Shown one piece after another: positions 38,559 through 44,904 of a DNA stretch of 64,000 bases. The first letter of the stretch is position 1. The number at the start of each line of letters is the position of its first letter. Under the pieces are notes generated by a model that did not search any database, was not told the origin of the DNA, and was given only the letters and a program-made list of their open reading frames with translations. The stretch lies in the sequence record MT596505.1. One strand, given 5' to 3'. The position numbers and the translations under genes were made by a program. The DNA is from Staphylococcus phage vB_SepM_BE08.

Positions 38559-38845
38559 CTAAGTCTTTCATTTGCTTCTTCTAAGTATTTCATAGGTTTA
38601 ATCTTAAGTACTTTCTTACTAGGTATAGTATAGTACTTCTTATCTAATCCATTCCATGCTCTTTTTTCTGGTTTTTCAATTACTTCTATTTGATATAATT
38701 TATGATTTTTTATTTTTTCTTGCCCTTCGTCAATGAAATCAACGATAGCTTTTGATTCTGCTTCTAATATTTCTTCTATATCCTGTATGTAGTATCCTGT
38801 TTCCTCTGATATTCTTCTAGCTATATCTTTTCTATTTACTGTCAT
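38546..38845 (-). CDS. HU/IHF-family DNA-binding protein (99 aa)
   Basis: N-terminal NRKDIARRISEETG and C-terminal arm KPEKRAWNGLDKKYYTIPSKKVLKIKP match the HU fold pattern. Confidence 0.8.
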   Translation of the reverse strand: MTVNRKDIARRISEETGYYIQDIEEILEAESKAIVDFIDEGQEKIKNHKLYQIEVIEKPEKRAWNGLDKKYYTIPSKKVLKIKPMKYLEEANERLRETD

Positions 38846-38853
38846 TATTATAC

Positions 38854-39579
38854 CTACAGTTTAACATTCTTTTGTTTTTTTAATTTAGTTATCTCATTTG
38901 TAACATCTTGGTGGTCTTCTTCACTAGTAAGGATATAGATATACATTTTCCATACAGATAGAGATACTCTAATTCTTTCAGCAAAATCAATTTTATATTC
39001 AGGTTTTAGTACGTAACCTTCACCATCAAAATCATAAAATTTTTTTTGTTTTTCTTCAATTGTTCTTAGCTTAGGGAATGTTAAATGAACCTCATCAACA
39101 TTAGTTTTAATTGGATGTAAATTTCTAATAATTTCATAAGGATTTACATAAGGAAGTACTATTGAAATATCAATTATTACTTTAGTTCCCATAAAGGATA
39201 ATGCTATATTATCAATTTCTTTATCTGAAAAACGCTCACGCATTTTATAAACAACTGCTGAATTTTGGTTTGTAGATAAGTCTTTAAATACATAATAAGG
39301 TATAATAGAATCTGTATAATAGTAAACACCGCCTCCATGTTTACATACTTTCTCAATAAGCCTATCGTTATTATACTTCTCATTAAATAACATATAAGTA
39401 TTATCATCTTTGAGTATATATCTACTAGACTTAGTAGCTACCTTATCTAGATTTTTTTCTATATCCTCTTCATTTGCATGTGTTATTTTTATTGATTTAC
39501 TTATTTCTTTTTTATCTTTAGTATGAATATTGAAATATCTATCACTATTATATATAGTTAGTGTTTTATTTTTTGCCAT
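38854..39579 (-). CDS. Hypothetical protein (241 aa)
   Basis: ORF in the array. Promoter embedded in an inverted repeat upstream. Confidence 0.55.
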   Translation of the reverse strand: MAKNKTLTIYNSDRYFNIHTKDKKEISKSIKITHANEEDIEKNLDKVATKSSRYILKDDNTYMLFNEKYNNDRLIEKVCKHGGGVYYYTDSIIPYYVFKDLSTNQNSAVVYKMRERFSDKEIDNIALSFMGTKVIIDISIVLPYVNPYEIIRNLHPIKTNVDEVHLTFPKLRTIEEKQKKFYDFDGEGYVLKPEYKIDFAERIRVSLSVWKMYIYILTSEEDHQDVTNEITKLKKQKNVKL

Positions 39580-39587
39580 AAAAAAAC

Positions 39588-39636
39588 CTCACTTCTTTGT
39601 ATAAATTAATTATACCATAAAAGTGAGATTTATCAA
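39588..39636 (-). promoter_or_regulatory. Sigma-A-like promoter (TTGATA-16-TATAAT) embedded in a 7-bp inverted repeat followed by a T-run (terminator/promoter overlap)
   Basis: Arms ctcactt (39588-39594) and aagtgag (39621-39627). -10 at plus 39609-39614, -35 at plus 39631-39636. Confidence 0.45.
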
Positions 39637-39644
39637 AATTAAAT

Positions 39645-39968
39645 TTAAATATTTTCTAAATCTTTAAATTTCATAGGGTTTACATCGTCACCTTCTAAAG
39701 TAACTTTAAGTTCTCCGTTTTTAAAACAAAGTAACAAAGGAGTACTCATAACATTAAATTTCTCGATAGCTAACTCTCTATCCACATCTTCATCATCTAA
39801 ATTTAATGAGAAAATAGGTTTTGTAATATCTCCAGTATTTTCAAATTCAGGTAAGATATTTTTTAAAATCTCACATTTAGCACATCCGTCTTGTGAAATT
39901 AATACAATAGCGTCATCATTGTATGAGATTTTTGTATTTAAGTCTACTAAGCTTTCTAATTTTTCCAT
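39645..39968 (-). CDS. Thioredoxin-like protein (CxxC)
   Basis: CAKC active-site-like motif in ISQDGCAKCEILKNI. 107 aa. Position next to the nrd genes. Confidence 0.7.
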   Translation of the reverse strand: MEKLESLVDLNTKISYNDDAIVLISQDGCAKCEILKNILPEFENTGDITKPIFSLNLDDEDVDRELAIEKFNVMSTPLLLCFKNGELKVTLEGDDVNPMKFKDLENI

Positions 39969-40161
39969 ATTTATTCTTCATCCGTTGTCAAAAACTTATA
40001 AAACTTTATAAATCTTATTCCTTTTTCAATGTACCCTCTTTTGAGTATTTCATATACATAGATTACTTCTTATTACTCTACTTGAGTTTGTATGATACTC
40101 CAAAGGCTTAAATTCCCGTACAACGAACGGTACATATATTTAGTATCTTGTTTTTGATATT

Positions 40162-41271
40162 CTAAATATTGTAGTTAGCTAAATTAATACTTGCATTGAG
40201 GTCTCTATCAAGACTAAAACCACATTCACAGTTAAATATTCTATCTGATAGTTTTAGGTTTTGATTAATAGTTCCACAGTTAGAACAAGTTTTACTAGAA
40301 GGATAAAATCTGTCTGCTAGTATAACTTCAATACCCTTTCTTTTACACTTATACTCTAACTGTCTTCTAAACTCGTAGAAACCTTGTTTTTGTATTGCTT
40401 TAGCTAAATGCCTATTCTTCATCATACCACTTACATTTAAATCTTCTATAACAATTCTTCTAGGTTTGGTTTTCACGATAGAAGTTGTTGTTTGATGTAA
40501 ATGGTTTTTACGAATGTTAGACAATCTTCGTTGTAGGAGTTTAATTTGTTTTTCAAGTTTTATAATATTGCAAGTTTTGACAAACTTTCCTCCTTCTTTA
40601 TTTTTTTGATATTTACGAGATACCTTACGTTGCAATCTACGTAATCGTTTTTCTAGTTTTTTAACTTTTACTGTTTTATTTATGTTTCCATAAATAGTTC
40701 CATCAGAACATATTACTAATTCTTTTATTCCTAAATCAATACCTAGTGATTCATCAGTTAGTTCTTCGTAGATGTTTTCTTCTTCAATAGAAACACTTAT
40801 ATACCAATATTTACCATCAAAAGTAATTCTAGGATTATAATACTTAGTATTCGTTGGTAGTTGTTCTGATGTTTTAACCCAACCTATTCTTTGTAACAAT
40901 ACTAAATTTTCTTTTACTCTTAATCTATGTGTATCATTATAAAAACTAGGTTTTGTTTTCTTCTTATATTTAAACTTAGGAAATTTAGCTTGTCCTTTAA
41001 AGAAACGCTTATAAGAAATACAAGCATCTTTAACTGCTTGTTTAGGAATATTGTTACTAACTTCTTTTAGCCATTTATACTCTTCTGTTTTCTTTAACTG
41101 AGTAATTTCTTTACGTAAAACAGAATCTTGTATAAACTTTTTTCCTTGTTTATAATTTTCTTGTTGTTTTGCTAAAGTCCAGTTGTATATAAATCTTGCT
41201 GTTCCTGCTGATTTATATAATTGTAGCTCTTGTTGTTTAGTAGGTCTAAGCCTAACTTTTTTAGTTATCAT
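40162..41271 (-). CDS. tnpB: TnpB (IS605 OrfB) RNA-guided endonuclease homolog (369 aa), apparently intact
   Basis: RuvC-I GIDLGIKELV, RuvC-II IVIEDLNVSGMMKN, zinc ribbon CSNCG...CECG, RuvC-III DRDLNASINL. N-terminal LRPTKQQELQL..RFIYNWTL. Confidence 0.9.
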   Translation of the reverse strand: MITKKVRLRPTKQQELQLYKSAGTARFIYNWTLAKQQENYKQGKKFIQDSVLRKEITQLKKTEEYKWLKEVSNNIPKQAVKDACISYKRFFKGQAKFPKFKYKKKTKPSFYNDTHRLRVKENLVLLQRIGWVKTSEQLPTNTKYYNPRITFDGKYWYISVSIEEENIYEELTDESLGIDLGIKELVICSDGTIYGNINKTVKVKKLEKRLRRLQRKVSRKYQKNKEGGKFVKTCNIIKLEKQIKLLQRRLSNIRKNHLHQTTTSIVKTKPRRIVIEDLNVSGMMKNRHLAKAIQKQGFYEFRRQLEYKCKRKGIEVILADRFYPSSKTCSNCGTINQNLKLSDRIFNCECGFSLDRDLNASINLANYNI

Positions 41272-41311
41272 TATTTAGCCCACCTTAAGATATGTTATCA
41301 CCTCTACAAGT

Positions 41312-41340
41312 ATTATAACATATCTTAGGTAAAAATGCAA
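41312..41340 (-). promoter_or_regulatory. Sigma-A-like promoter (TTGCAT-17-TATAAT) upstream of tnpB; its -10 lies in the loop of a 13-bp inverted repeat
   Basis: -35 at plus 41335-41340, -10 at plus 41312-41317. Inverted repeat taagatatgttat/ataacatatctta. AAGGTGG RBS 8 nt before the ATG. Confidence 0.55.
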
Positions 41341-41374
41341 CTTAATTTATAAAAAAGTTATAAATTTATATTAA

Positions 41375-41686
41375 TTATCTTTCATCCTTTTCTAATAAAT
41401 TAATTACTTCTTCAAAGCTATTTACATTATAAACTATTGGATGTTCTAATCCTTGTGACTTATCTATAACTGTGAGTGCACTGTTATTATACCCTAAAAT
41501 ATAATTAGTACTCTTATAACTAAATTCTAATTGAAAAGAAGTAGACTCTGAATCAGGTCTAGTATCTTCTTTCTGATTAAGTATTTTAATAGGGTCGTAT
41601 AAGTCTTCTACATATTTGAAATCATCATACTTTTTAAACAAAGTCTCTGCTTTATTCATAAGTACTAATGCTTCTTTTCTATCCAT
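41375..41686 (-). CDS. Hypothetical protein (103 aa)
   Basis: ORF in the array. Confidence 0.55.
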   Translation of the reverse strand: MDRKEALVLMNKAETLFKKYDDFKYVEDLYDPIKILNQKEDTRPDSESTSFQLEFSYKSTNYILGYNNSALTVIDKSQGLEHPIVYNVNSFEEVINLLEKDER

Positions 41687-41725
41687 AATAACTTTCCTTT
41701 CTTATGTTATACTATAAAAAGGTTA

Positions 41726-42772
41726 TCATAAAAATTTATCTACTAAATCACTTTCATTATCTTCGATATTAAAATCATCATCTTTAATATCTTTAATATT
41801 AGTAGATTTTTCATAATCTGCTTTCCCACTAAAGAAATCTACGTGTCTCATTCTACCTACATCAATTTGATTATTAACAATAGCATTAAAAGGTTCTGGA
41901 TGAAAATAATCTTCTTTACCTAAATTAGATAAGGCTCTATTAAAATTATATTCTACATATCTAATTACATCTTCAGTTAATCCTAAGTCATCATATAACA
42001 TATGTGTATATGATACTTCATTATCATATAATATGTCAAGTAATTTATACATTAATTTATCAGCTTTTTCTTTTTCCGTATCTGTTAATTGTTCATAATC
42101 ATATTGTGCTGTCAACCCTACTGCTGAACCATGATATGATTCATCTTGAGTTATTTTAAATATAACAGCTCCTGATTGTGTCATACGACCTTGACCTGCT
42201 AAAAGTAAAGGGTAATAGAACCCGGAGTAGAATAAGGCACTCTCTAAAAACGCACTGGCAACTTTTGCCATATATCTATCAAAAGTAGTAGGCTCTGGGT
42301 TTAGTAACTTTTTGTAAAAATAACCAATAAATTGAGCTTTTTTAATTAAGTGGCTTTCTTCTCTTACCCACTCATCTAATAAATAATTAGTTTCTTTATT
42401 ATTTAAAATAGTTGTAAATATATGAGAGTATGAACGTTCATGTACAAACTCCATCATACCCATATATCCAAAAACAGCTTTATAATGTCTTCTAGGTTCT
42501 TGATATGAAATAAGGTTCATACCTTCTCCGCCTTGTTTAGCATCTAAACCAGTTAACCCTGCTAAAACTTTTTTATAAGTTTCTCTCTCAATGTCAGAGA
42601 GTTCATTCCAAGAATTTAAATCCCTGGAAATATCGAACTCTTCAGGAAACCAGATTTGATTAACACCTTGGTTCCAATAAATCTCAGACATACCGTCTGA
42701 TTGTTTATTCCAATTAATTGGTTCTAATTTATCTTCTTTATTATTTAATTCTACTGCTTTTCTTAGTGACAT
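41726..42772 (-). CDS. nrdF: Ribonucleotide reductase class Ib beta subunit
   Basis: Ferritin-like di-iron motifs (MMEFVHERSYSHI; ITQDESYHGS). Likely start MSLRK at 42772 after an AAGGAAGG RBS, just downstream of the nrdE stop. Confidence 0.85.
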   Translation of the reverse strand: MSLRKAVELNNKEDKLEPINWNKQSDGMSEIYWNQGVNQIWFPEEFDISRDLNSWNELSDIERETYKKVLAGLTGLDAKQGGEGMNLISYQEPRRHYKAVFGYMGMMEFVHERSYSHIFTTILNNKETNYLLDEWVREESHLIKKAQFIGYFYKKLLNPEPTTFDRYMAKVASAFLESALFYSGFYYPLLLAGQGRMTQSGAVIFKITQDESYHGSAVGLTAQYDYEQLTDTEKEKADKLMYKLLDILYDNEVSYTHMLYDDLGLTEDVIRYVEYNFNRALSNLGKEDYFHPEPFNAIVNNQIDVGRMRHVDFFSGKADYEKSTNIKDIKDDDFNIEDNESDLVDKFL

Positions 42773-42786
42773 TTGTTTTCCTTCCT

Positions 42787-44904
42787 TTATACCGAACATG
42801 TTTCACATTCAATTACCTCTAACTTACGTGAACGTGTATAATATAATGATTTTAATCCTTTAGACCATGCATAGTAGTATAAACTTACTAGTTTATTTGT
42901 AGGTATTTCTGATTCAACATATAAAATTGTAGAAACTGCTTGGTCTGTATGCTTCTGAACCACAGCACCTGTATTTATGATTTTTTTATTATCTAATTTA
43001 TATGCTGTTTCATTATCGTAAAAGAATTGAGTAATAGGACTCAAGAAAGGCATAGGGTAATATGTTTCCATATCTCCATATTGTCTATTCTCAATCGCAC
43101 TAGGTACAGGCATAATGCTTGCTGTAGCATTTTGAACATATGAAATAGATTGTGTTGGAGCTTCCGCTCTTCTGTAAGCATTATATAAACCGTATCTTTT
43201 AACATCTTTAGCTAATTGTTCCCAATCATCTTGACTAGGGATATACACTTTTTCTAAAACTTCTTTAGCTTTTTGTGTTGTTGGTTCATTAGATTTATTA
43301 ATGTATGGTTTGAAATAATTACCATTAGCATACTCGGATTTTTCAAACCCTTTAAATGACTTACCTTTTTCTTTAGCAATGTGCATACTAGATTTAATAG
43401 AGTTATAGTTTATTGCACTATACAAGCTGTTAATGAGGTCTAAAGCTTCTAATGAACCATAACTAATCATATTTTTAGCTAAGAGTCCATGTAAATTAAG
43501 TGAACCTAAACCTACTGCATGTAATTCATCATTAGCTTTATTTACACTAGGTAAAAATGGTAGATACATCATATCAGTAACATTTGACAAAGAACGCATA
43601 CCCATATCAACTGACTCTTCAAGTAAACCTTTCTCTACAACATTTACTAAGTTTAATGATGCTAGTGTACAAATAACATCCCTACCGATATTATCTTTAT
43701 CAGATTCCATATAAGGATGTATATCTGATACTTCTTGTAATTGTGCTATTTCTGTACACAAATTACTAGCTCTAACTTTACCTATACCTTTTAGTGGGTG
43801 ATTATCATTTGCATTATCAATATAGAAAACGTAAGGATAACCACTCTCTAATTGAGTTTTAGCAATATCAGTCATTAAATCTCTTGCATTTAATTTTTTC
43901 TTCTTAATGTTATCATTTTTAATTAAATTTTCATACTCTTCATTAAAATCAATCTCATCTAAATGTTTACCTGTTACTTCATATAAATTAGAAGTATCAA
44001 AAGTGTATAATGGTCTATCATCTTTTACTAATTCCATGAACTTATTAGGAATTGTAACACCTAAAGATAAAGTATCTAACCTAACTTTCTCACTAGCATT
44101 AATTTTCTTAGAACTTAAAAAGTCTTCAATATCTTGATGAAATACATTTAAATAAACTACAGCTGAACCTTGACGCATACCTGCTTGGTTAAAGTGGCTT
44201 ACACCTTGTTCAATATTTTTAGCAAAAGGAATAACTCCCTGACTAGCGTTAGGGTTGCCTTGTACTGTAGCTCCTTTAGGTCTTATTCTAGACGCTTCTA
44301 CGGATACTCCACCACTATTTTTACTTGCATTTCGTACCGAGTTAGCTACAAAGTTAATAGATTCTATTGTATCATCTACAACAAAAATATAACAAGAACT
44401 TAATTCCCCTCTATTACCTTTACCTGAATGTAAATAAGTAGGTGTAGCTGGTTGTAATGTTTGTTCCATTAATTGAATAAGCATATCTCTAGCTTTAGCA
44501 TAATCATCTTGGAATAAATATAATGCTACTCTAACATTATGCTGTTCATAATCCTCTACAAATACTACGTTATCATCTTTATCATATTGAACCACTGCAT
44601 AGGATTCATAAAACTTTTGACAAGCCATAAAACTTTGGAATTTAAAATTAAAGCTATATGCTAATTCTGTCATCTCTTTAATAATAGTATCAGGCACGTT
44701 ATCTAATACTTTATCATAAGAGCCTTCTTTTGTCAATACTCTAACTCTATCTACTTCATTATCAAACTCTCTTGTATTAGACTTAACATAATCTTCATAC
44801 TCTTTTAGAGCTTCTTTATCTTTATATAATTTATTTTTACCATACTCATCCAGCTGGGTAATTTCGTTATTTAATTCAATCCATTTTCCATAATTCTTTG
44901 CCAT
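42787..44904 (-). CDS. nrdE: Ribonucleotide reductase class Ib alpha subunit (705 aa, uninterrupted)
   Basis: Active-site NLCTEIAQL. Length and order nrdI-nrdE-nrdF. Confidence 0.9.
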   Translation of the reverse strand: MAKNYGKWIELNNEITQLDEYGKNKLYKDKEALKEYEDYVKSNTREFDNEVDRVRVLTKEGSYDKVLDNVPDTIIKEMTELAYSFNFKFQSFMACQKFYESYAVVQYDKDDNVVFVEDYEQHNVRVALYLFQDDYAKARDMLIQLMEQTLQPATPTYLHSGKGNRGELSSCYIFVVDDTIESINFVANSVRNASKNSGGVSVEASRIRPKGATVQGNPNASQGVIPFAKNIEQGVSHFNQAGMRQGSAVVYLNVFHQDIEDFLSSKKINASEKVRLDTLSLGVTIPNKFMELVKDDRPLYTFDTSNLYEVTGKHLDEIDFNEEYENLIKNDNIKKKKLNARDLMTDIAKTQLESGYPYVFYIDNANDNHPLKGIGKVRASNLCTEIAQLQEVSDIHPYMESDKDNIGRDVICTLASLNLVNVVEKGLLEESVDMGMRSLSNVTDMMYLPFLPSVNKANDELHAVGLGSLNLHGLLAKNMISYGSLEALDLINSLYSAINYNSIKSSMHIAKEKGKSFKGFEKSEYANGNYFKPYINKSNEPTTQKAKEVLEKVYIPSQDDWEQLAKDVKRYGLYNAYRRAEAPTQSISYVQNATASIMPVPSAIENRQYGDMETYYPMPFLSPITQFFYDNETAYKLDNKKIINTGAVVQKHTDQAVSTILYVESEIPTNKLVSLYYYAWSKGLKSLYYTRSRKLEVIECETCSV

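Follow-up and report, generated by a model that had tools for sequence, protein, structure and literature searches.

A transposase-less IS607-type TnpB and guide-RNA cassette in Staphylococcus phage vB_SepM_BE08 as a candidate for RNA-guided homing between co-infecting phages

The DNA analyzed here, the window, is a stretch of 64,000 nucleotides from Staphylococcus phage vB_SepM_BE08 (MT596505.1), a virulent Sepunavirus of Staphylococcus epidermidis in the subfamily Twortvirinae of the family Herelleviridae. Between the genes for a 103-aa hypothetical protein and a thioredoxin-like protein, it carries a tnpB gene followed by a guide-RNA (reRNA) scaffold. An earlier model reading of the letters alone (the sequence-only reading) had put an intact OMEGA-type TnpB element of the phage replication module between these two genes and expected a mere short gap in relatives, and indeed the two neighbors are 2 nt apart in phages lacking the insert. 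It took positions 39969 to 41374 as the element. These limits turned out to be those of the intergenic interval; the insert at this locus is real, and comparison of the window with phage phiIPLA-C1C gave a length of 1,404 bp, edged by a 7-bp repeat. By the IS607 convention, counted from the clade-wide right end ..CAACGG, the element spans 39982..41385 (Table 1). We consider it probable that the element is a transposase-less IS607 cassette of TnpB and guide RNA that spreads by RNA-guided homing during co-infection.

Table 1. Features of the tnpB element and its junctions, in window coordinates
Feature	Position	Strand	Remarks
Predicted 20-nt guide template, ATGAAGAATAAATATGGAAA	39962..39981	(-)	Flanking phage DNA over the start codon of the thioredoxin-like gene (ATG 39968..39966)
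7-bp direct repeat, GGATGAA (element orientation)	39977-39983 and 41381-41387	(-)	Two copies in the window, one in the empty site
Right-hand GGATGAA copy	39977..39983	(-)	Terminal GG plus first 5 nt of the guide
Terminal GG, right end	39982..39983	(-)	IS607 hallmark; AACGG before guide-matching DNA in the carrier, AAAGG in the empty allele
reRNA scaffold, 177 nt	39982..40158	(-)	5' hairpin, RAGATH-18 core, 3' TTTATAA-repeat segment, terminal GACAACGG
RAGATH-18 core (Rfam RF03064) with 20-nt insertion in apical loop	40018..40106	(-)	61.0 bits vs gathering score 44.9; E-value 6e-11
tnpB, 369 aa, IS607-clade RNA-guided nuclease (predicted)	40162..41271	(-)	RuvC D179/E276/D357; zinc ribbon C329, C332, C348, C350
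Remodelled left end	41272..41385	(-)	tnpB ribosome-binding site, inverted repeat, promoter, TTTATAA-type palindrome; outer 'AACAG' segment missing
13-bp perfect inverted repeat	41286-41298 / 41315-41327	(-)	16-nt loop with former tnpA ribosome-binding site (GAGGTG); from sequence
Promoter-like TTGCAT-17-TATAAT, extended -10 TATGtTATAAT	41312..41340	(-)	TTGCAT 41340..41335, TATAAT 41317..41312; direct reading
Target duplicate, GGATGAAAGATAA	41375..41387	(-)	Diverged copy (2 mismatches) of target GGATGAAGAATAA; gives the upstream gene its last codons and stop

TnpB and its guide-RNA scaffold

The predicted TnpB displays the Pfam domains HTH_OrfB_IS605, OrfB_IS605 (RuvC) and Cas12f1-like_TNB in that order, with 58, 64.5 and 87 bits, each above cut-off, and scores 328 bits against NCBIfam guided_TnpB (cut-off 100). 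The catalytic residues lie in the motifs GIDLG (D179), IEDLN (E276) and DRDLNAS (D357), and the zinc-ribbon cysteines in CSNC/CEC. The best match among solved structures was 8iaz_A (phmmer, 2e-85, 290 bits, residues 5-365). 8IAZ is the TnpB of ISFba1, an IS607-family RNA-guided DNase with RuvC residues D194/E290/D371 (Ren et al. 2024, PMC11061315). All three window residues align with these positions; in the deposited chain, which has the mutation D371A, an alanine stands opposite D357. A TnpB with RuvC motifs and zinc ribbon, as first read from the letters, is thus borne out by Pfam, by the motif positions and by the ISFba1 alignment, and the loss of RuvC residues on careful alignment, named beforehand as a possible refutation, did not occur.

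All seven phage tnpB copies, from four phage genera, are exactly 369 codons long and keep the D/E/D motifs. Pairwise dN/dS (nonsynonymous to synonymous substitution rates) of the window copy against the six others was 0.07-0.15, at dS 0.18-0.79, which indicates strong purifying selection on tnpB in phages.

The RNA RAGATH-18 forms the core of the IS607 TnpB reRNA, where it lies after the stop codon within conserved 5' and 3' segments that are followed by a guide of about 20 nt (Ren et al., PMC11061315), and it has been reported only with IS607 TnpB (PMC11061315). In the window, the RAGATH-18 match covers the full model (1-71) and is the sole Rfam family found; the GenBank record of phage 110 already annotates it. 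The scaffold begins 4 nt past the tnpB stop codon and does not overlap the coding sequence. A guide-RNA scaffold in a GC-rich, structured 3' flank had been foreseen by the sequence-only reading. The scaffold and the structure are there, as the 61-bit RAGATH-18 match and a fold z-score of -2.4 for the scaffold region attest, but the GC richness is not (28.8% in the 3' flank vs 27.5% in the window).

We aligned the scaffold, from the tnpB stop codon onward, between the window, four other phage copies and 16 bacterial IS607 relatives. Homology ran throughout the scaffold region in all copies, and all 21 of them ended at the right in GACAACGG or a GRCAACGG terminus and diverged completely right after it. 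Since every copy diverges after CAACGG, we delimited the scaffold as 40158..39982, with the guide template starting at 39981. The consensus fold has compensatory changes at 13 of its 26 pairs. Within it, GRCAACG at the 3' terminus and the loop CGUUGU of the 5' hairpin form a pairing, with a GC-to-AU covariation in one relative, that resembles the pseudoknot described for ISFba1.

The relatives of the element point in the same direction. Among one-genome-per-species contigs we found 65 bacterial relatives with at most 67% identity, from Kurthia, Alkaliphilus, Bacillaceae and Clostridium, and RAGATH-18 lay about 60 nt past tnpB in 16 of the 16 closest ones scanned. Several of them encode a TnpA of 205-212 aa that overlaps the tnpB start and combines a MerR-like helix-turn-helix (HTH) domain with a GYCRVSS serine-recombinase core; in others TnpA is truncated. 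IS607 elements terminate in GG (PMC13565253). The window element likewise ends in GG, is inserted at or after GG in a G-rich target and has no terminal inverted repeats; it shares these traits with canonical IS607, together with TTTATAA-type repeats near both ends and, in its relatives, the tnpA/tnpB overlap. Judged by these sequence relationships, the element is of the IS607 lineage, not of IS605/IS1341. No serine-recombinase TnpA was found in the window, in agreement with the absence of tnpA noted at the outset, and the element is therefore a non-autonomous derivative rather than a complete IS607.

An affiliation with IS605/IS1341, suggested by the sequence-only reading, would instead make it an IS1341-like solo tnpB of IS200/IS605 type, with an omega-RNA overlapping the 3' end of the gene and a Y1 HUH TnpA acting in trans on subterminal hairpins. 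The Pfam and GenBank names ('OrfB_IS605', 'IS605 OrfB transposase') speak for this, as do the inverted repeat in the left end and the NCBIfam exception models, where IS200_TnpB (264 bits, cut-off 425) outscores IS607_TnpB (191 bits, cut-off 350). This ranking, the wrong way round and with both scores below cut-off, was set aside as uninformative compared with synteny, RNA and structure match. ISFba1 is much closer in structure searches than the IS605 protein ISDra2 TnpB (5e-44, 154 bits); the RNA, IS607-only according to PMC11061315, begins past the stop codon; a serine-recombinase TnpA is found in the closest relatives and, as remnants, in phage copies; and the element has a terminal GG and a G-rich target where IS200/IS605 would insert 3' of an AT-rich tetra- or pentanucleotide. 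We regard the IS605 alternative as extremely improbable, the RAGATH-18 reRNA and the serine-recombinase lineage both placing the element with IS607.

Insertion polymorphism and loss of the transposase

From 38800 to 42800, the window is 99.8-99.9% identical to Twillingate, phiIBB-SEP1 and BE25, and 99.4% identical to phage 110. The insert is missing from nine distinct Sepunaviruses (10 records) that are 98.5-99.6% identical, so that five phages of our sample of 14, window included, are filled and nine are empty. A homologous gene in the relatives with no flanking discontinuity had been named as an outcome that would refute an insertion; what we observed was nine phages without the gene and a sharp discontinuity.

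We then compared 10-12 kb around the site between 13 related Sepunaviruses and the window. No fixed difference between filled and empty phages was found in 8.8 kb of flank (3.6 kb left and 5.2 kb right), and the nearest four-gamete violations, sites with both alleles in filled and empty phages alike, lie 73 bp from one junction and 899 bp from the other. Phage 110 differs from the window at 0 of 1412 positions in the element and at 20 of 1300 in the adjoining flank, where its haplotype is that of the empty phages PG-2021_1, BE04 and Terranova. By our own calculation, the chance of zero differences over about 1.5 kb at the flank divergence of phage 110 is roughly e^-23. The identity of the element on a diverged flank therefore indicates that it moved between genomic backgrounds, with crossovers very near its ends. 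The element shows two features of the homing class: presence or absence at one site whose target is intact in the empty alleles, and a history differing from that of the flanks.

The insertion is also polymorphic in Kayvirus, where about 10 of 267 matching records are filled and phage K is empty, and in Silviavirus, with 18 carriers and with SA11 and others empty. At least seven different insertion sites are known in staphylococcal phages. The Silviavirus insert (Remus, L009:2884-2971, compared with SA11, L076; L numbers are our own handles) is 1,466 bp long and replaced 8 bp of the empty site (TAGAAGGG); at its left, a tRNA-Ser gene takes the place of the IS607 left end and tnpA. Because this gene lies within the insert, it is inherited as cargo of the TnpB cassette.

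Traces of the lost transposase vary from copy to copy. Kayvirus retains an 86-aa HTH-only open reading frame (ORF; Pfam MerR, 6e-10; NCBIfam transpos_IS607, positions 2-51 of 187), Twort a 39-aa remnant, one IMG/VR copy (L198) a 51-aa fusion of the first six codons with the C-terminal tail of the recombinase, and another copy (L199) a shorter remnant behind a different promoter, while nothing of tnpA is left in the window copy. In phage copies, tnpA has decayed in at least four different ways and tnpB never. A Cetobacterium metagenome-assembled genome (L039:2374-2520) encodes a 48-aa TnpA remnant consisting of the HTH only, like the 86-aa ORF of Kayvirus. This suggests that HTH-only TnpA derivatives arise repeatedly, and they might serve as regulators.

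The element could be a decaying, non-functional transposon remnant, its patchy distribution produced by one old insertion, repeated loss and ordinary recombination. In keeping with this, the element has lost tnpA and part of its left end, occurs in a minority of genomes and is flanked by a 7-bp repeat that could allow precise deletion. Such decay would hardly leave the dN/dS values given above, 369 codons unchanged in four genera, or a reRNA conserved with compensatory changes, nor does it account for tnpA decaying by at least four routes with tnpB spared, or for an identical element on flanks 1.5% apart. We also considered the empty sites as deletion products and rejected this: at each of two independent sites, the repeat starts precisely with the terminal GG of the element, and deletion endpoints leave this unexplained. 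A mere remnant is therefore unlikely, and distinctly so.

We asked where a transposase could come from. In a search of 5.8 billion proteins, the window TnpB fell into a tight clade at ≥83% identity, whose named members are all from staphylococcal phages and whose long contigs are phage-genome-sized. The nearest staphylococcal bacterial relative, from S. aureus (70% identity), is a solo tnpB too. Its contigs (L227-L231:3001-4116) carry RepA_N replication genes and are plasmid-like, with no recombinase gene adjoining tnpB; one of them also holds an IS605-type tnpB with a Y1 tnpA nearby. Plasmid matches came mostly from Campylobacter, Clostridium and Bacillus, with none from staphylococcal plasmids, and those listed were about 68-71% identical. 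A host-supplied TnpA was not found in the genome contigs, the plasmids or the S. aureus relative. For viral genomes, an IMG/VR 14-mer scan for the right end (ATTTTTGACAACGG) gave 120 loci, of which only Twort was genuine, and was replaced by a protein-seeded search. On a 208-kb viral contig of IMG/VR (L208:1894-3685), an IS607 relative is complete, its tnpB next to a gene for an intact serine-recombinase TnpA of 205 aa; phage-like genomes thus do carry autonomous copies.

That contig, the fully canonical right end with insertion at GG, and the seven or more insertion sites in staphylococcal phages would suit a still-active IS607 transposon moved in trans by TnpA from the host or a co-resident element. 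We find this very improbable: the outer left-end segment of bacterial elements and Twort is absent here, no close recombinase-bearing relative turned up in one-genome-per-species contigs or plasmids (best matches about 66-70% identical), the S. aureus relative is solo as well, and the clade at ≥83% identity is named from staphylococcal phages only.

Guide, target and the case for homing

Adopting the 20-nt guide length of ISFba1 (PMC11061315), we predicted the guide as the first 20 nt of phage DNA past the right end. The window holds a single match to it. Over 91 bp that include the target-adjacent motif (TAM) and the protospacer, the empty alleles do not differ at all (100% identity), and the guide matches perfectly in nine of nine empty phages. 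At each insertion site the guide is different and always equal to the local flank.

The 5 nt before the protospacer in empty sites are AAAGG in Sepunavirus, AGAGG in Kayvirus and AAGGG in Silviavirus, whereas the carriers' own junction is always AACGG, the invariant element terminus. The TAM would accordingly read NNRGG (AAAGG here), with the C at -3 protecting the carrier. At the left junction, carriers have AAAGG followed by ATGAAAGATAA.., with mismatches to guide positions 6-7. For IS607, the TAMs reported so far are AGGAG or GAGGG (PMC11061315), and in ISFba1 any single TAM change abolishes cleavage (PMC11061315).

The location of the targets also follows a pattern. A start codon lies 7-14 nt past the terminal GG at 7 of 7 phage sites and in 12 of 16 bacterial relatives (for instance L015:3776-3790 and L012:3771-3785, from the right ends L012-L075), compared with means of 2.1 and 4.4 in 5,000 composition-matched shuffles, none of which reached the observed counts. 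Two of the bacterial cases were verified as ORF starts. The left flanks of Twort and the bacterial elements are G-rich and end in GG, and the annotations of Twillingate and Quidividi put the ribosome-binding site (RBS) of the thioredoxin gene on the GGA that starts at the terminal GG. Insertion sites thus tend to be Shine-Dalgarno sites, apparently throughout the RAGATH-18/IS607 clade and not in the phage copies alone. Such a location fits the published TAMs AGGAG and GAGGG, which are themselves Shine-Dalgarno-like.

Taking these observations together, we propose the following course of homing. The relic tnpA promoter would drive tnpB, and the transcript would run on through the RAGATH-18-type scaffold to its terminal motif and into phage DNA, so that the guide would consist of roughly 20 nt of adjoining flank, where the thioredoxin-like gene has its ribosome-binding and start region. 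In a co-infecting sister phage without the insert, the same 20 nt would be preceded by the purine-rich AAAGG instead of AACGG, and for that reason TnpB-reRNA would spare the carrier and cut the empty allele alone; as in ISFba1, the cut would probably fall 16-22 nt from the TAM. With the carrier genome as template, recombinational repair would then bring in a copy of the cassette, which would amount to homing, a natural RNA-guided gene drive. A role in homing or in competition between phages had been raised by the sequence-only reading and fits the population data as well as the way guide and target are arranged. Nuclease activity, the exact TAM, and cleavage by TnpB rather than ordinary recombination as the driver of transfer are the parts of this scheme that we infer from sequence.

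The same geometry could serve a domesticated weapon or regulator that benefits the phage, either destroying insert-free sister phages without being copied or binding the start of the phage's own thioredoxin gene to tune its expression. Phage homing endonucleases do give a competitive advantage by killing competitors (PMC13565253), and the guide spans the RBS and start codon of the downstream gene. Against this, an identical element in a different flank haplotype means that copying occurs, and the RuvC triad is intact, unlike that of nuclease-dead TldR-type repressors. The guide, moreover, varies by site with the local flank and, differing at every insertion site, leaves no common regulatory target. 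We judge such a role doubtful, though less so than decay or mobilization in trans.

Several points weigh against homing by an IS607 TnpB. The putative TAM NNRGG, based on three empty sites, is not the same as either of the two IS607 TAMs established by experiment, and a single base (C vs A/G at -3) would have to tell self from target. With 5 of 14 Sepunaviruses and about 4% of Kayvirus records carrying the element, any drive is not sweeping. The flank haplotypes prove recombination near the element, not its initiation by a TnpB cut, because these phages recombine freely and a neighboring intron homing endonuclease is also polymorphic. Neither the IS607_TnpB nor the IS200_TnpB model of NCBIfam reaches its threshold. 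Finally, the duplicate of the target at the left junction (7 bp exact, 13 bp diverged) is predicted neither by clean IS607 insertion nor by precise homing.

IS607 elements are not expected to make target duplications, yet this one is flanked by a direct repeat. In the empty allele, the upstream gene ends in GAA AAG GAT GAA GAA TAA, with the thioredoxin-like start 2 nt further; in the window it ends in ..GAT GAA AGA TAA, taken from element-side sequence (..DER* vs ..DEE*). The exact part of the duplicate is the 7-bp GGATGAA here, while the Kayvirus site has an exact 13-bp duplicate, GGTGTATATTTAA. At both sites the duplicate is 13 nt long, runs from GG through the stop codon of the upstream gene and occupies the place of the missing outer left-end segment. 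Insertion sites without an overlapping upstream gene have no target duplicate. One explanation may be imprecise, microhomology-mediated repair of a TAM-distal TnpB cut. Such repair would leave the TAM and at most 16 nt of protospacer on the left side, and the upstream stop codon would be kept by selection.

We put forward more tentatively, and at slightly less than even confidence, a broader form of the homing explanation: a Twortvirinae gene drive in which an IS607 cassette repeatedly shed its transposase and now only cuts insert-free Shine-Dalgarno and start regions in co-infecting relatives. Self and target would differ in one TAM base (AACGG vs ARRGG), and imprecise, microhomology-mediated repair of the TAM-distal cut would have left its scars in the variable target duplicates, the truncated left ends and the captured tRNA-Ser.

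Among known systems, ISFba1 TnpB-reRNA shares with the window element the domain order, the RuvC triad, a RAGATH-18 core after the stop codon, a guide from the flank past the right end and a G-rich target motif. It differs in about half of the residues and in its TAM (AGGAG/GAGGG vs the predicted NNRGG). The window scaffold has a 20-nt loop insertion and a 3' segment of about 36 nt, compared with 64 nt in ISFba1, and the element lies on a virulent phage without TnpA. Canonical IS607 has a serine-recombinase TnpA and makes no target duplication, whereas the window element lacks tnpA and the outer left end and has the duplicate. TnpA-less IStrons and TldR systems have likewise kept TnpB and guide RNA after transposase loss, and some TldRs are phage-encoded. 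No group I intron was found in the element by the Rfam scan, unlike in IStrons; and TldR proteins have an inactivated RuvC and a short C-terminus, whereas the window TnpB retains triad, zinc ribbon and C-terminus and is therefore not a TldR-type repressor.

In mechanism, the proposal resembles the IS605 TnpB plasmid gene drive (PMC11870625) and 'transposon non-restorative homing' (PMC13565253), in which an empty site is cut and the element copied by repair independently of TnpA. The plasmid drive concerns IS605 in plasmids and is experimental; here the case is IS607 in virulent phages and would be read from natural variation. Free-standing homing endonuclease genes of phages (T4 SegF, mob genes), like the GIY-YIG gene in the intron of nrdE, are similarly present or absent at a fixed site between conserved genes of near-identical lytic phages, need co-infection to spread and show short co-conversion tracts. 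Unlike them, the cassette would recognize its target by a guide RNA copied from the flank, and the carrier would be protected by the insertion and one TAM base, not by target divergence.

Demonstrations of TnpB homing concern the retention of transposons in bacteria and, with IS605, a drive in plasmids (PMC11870625), and a 2026 review treats non-restorative homing into co-infecting phages as theoretical only (PMC13565253). Our literature search found no link between TnpB and staphylococcal Herelleviridae phages, and the element is possibly the first natural phage example of TnpB homing. The protein and RNA families were already known, and the gene is annotated 'transposase' in GenBank. New here are the reassignment to IS607, the repeated loss of tnpA with tnpB and reRNA kept under selection, the apparent Shine-Dalgarno targeting, an explicit predicted guide, TAM and self-protection logic, and the population signature of transfer. 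With the predicted guide, target and protective base explicit, phage-to-phage RNA-guided homing becomes directly testable, and culture collections hold a natural, near-isogenic test system in the carriers phiIBB-SEP1, Twillingate, BE25 and 110 and the empty phages phiIPLA-C1C, 80A/80B, BE04/05, Quidividi and Terranova. Phages of Sepunavirus, Kayvirus and Silviavirus are candidates for phage therapy, and if one member of a cocktail carries a driving nuclease cassette, its sister phages could be converted or excluded. For genome editing, a TnpB as compact as 369 aa, whose NNRGG TAM is possibly relaxed, may be of interest as well.

Left end and neighboring mobile elements

The left end of the window element is remodelled. 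A left-end alignment shows that bacterial elements and Twort have kept the outer 'AACAG' segment, which is missing in the window and Kayvirus. The TTGCAT-17-TATAAT promoter described by the sequence-only reading as strong and as the gene's own is present, is conserved in the Twort, Kayvirus and PG copies and coincides with a promoter annotated in the phiIBB-SEP1 record. It was not listed by our consensus promoter scan, since TTGCAT agrees with TTGACA in no more than 3 of 6 letters. Any strength would come from the extended -10, and we keep the promoter as a weaker claim on direct reading, conservation and the SEP1 annotation. It is not newly acquired but is the former tnpA promoter, now upstream of tnpB.

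The 13-bp perfect inverted repeat seen from the letters is also there, but the -10 straddles the boundary of arm and loop instead of lying within the loop. At the matching position in the Twort, Kayvirus and PG-2021 copies, the hairpin has the tnpA RBS in its loop and the tnpA start codon in its 3' arm. Most simply, it may block tnpA translation on read-through transcripts, or the lost HTH protein may have used it as an operator; the window copy may be a relic beside the tnpB RBS. An RNA hairpin role in the element's own transcript was judged unlikely, since transcription from this -10 would begin inside the loop.

TTTATAA-type palindromic repeats near both ends (39991-40016, TTTATAAAGTTTTATAAG; 41344-41366, AATTTATAA-N5-TTATAAATT) are conserved in the bacterial relatives and are plausibly candidate binding sites of the lost TnpA HTH domain.

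Other mobile elements are found close by. In nrdE (42787..44904 in the window), about 2.4 kb from the cassette, Twillingate (L214:8912-9900), BE25 and phiIPLA-C1C (L214, L216 and L218) have a group I intron with a GIY-YIG homing endonuclease. The window, SEP1, phage 110 and eight further phages lack this intron, and each of the four combinations of intron and TnpB cassette, present or absent, occurs. The DNA polymerase gene to the left is polymorphic too, with an HNH-endonuclease intron in most Sepunaviruses (L214:460-1281), a different intron ORF in Quidividi (L223:2115-2600) and an uninterrupted gene in Terranova (L226:445-3666). The replication module is a hotspot of homing elements.

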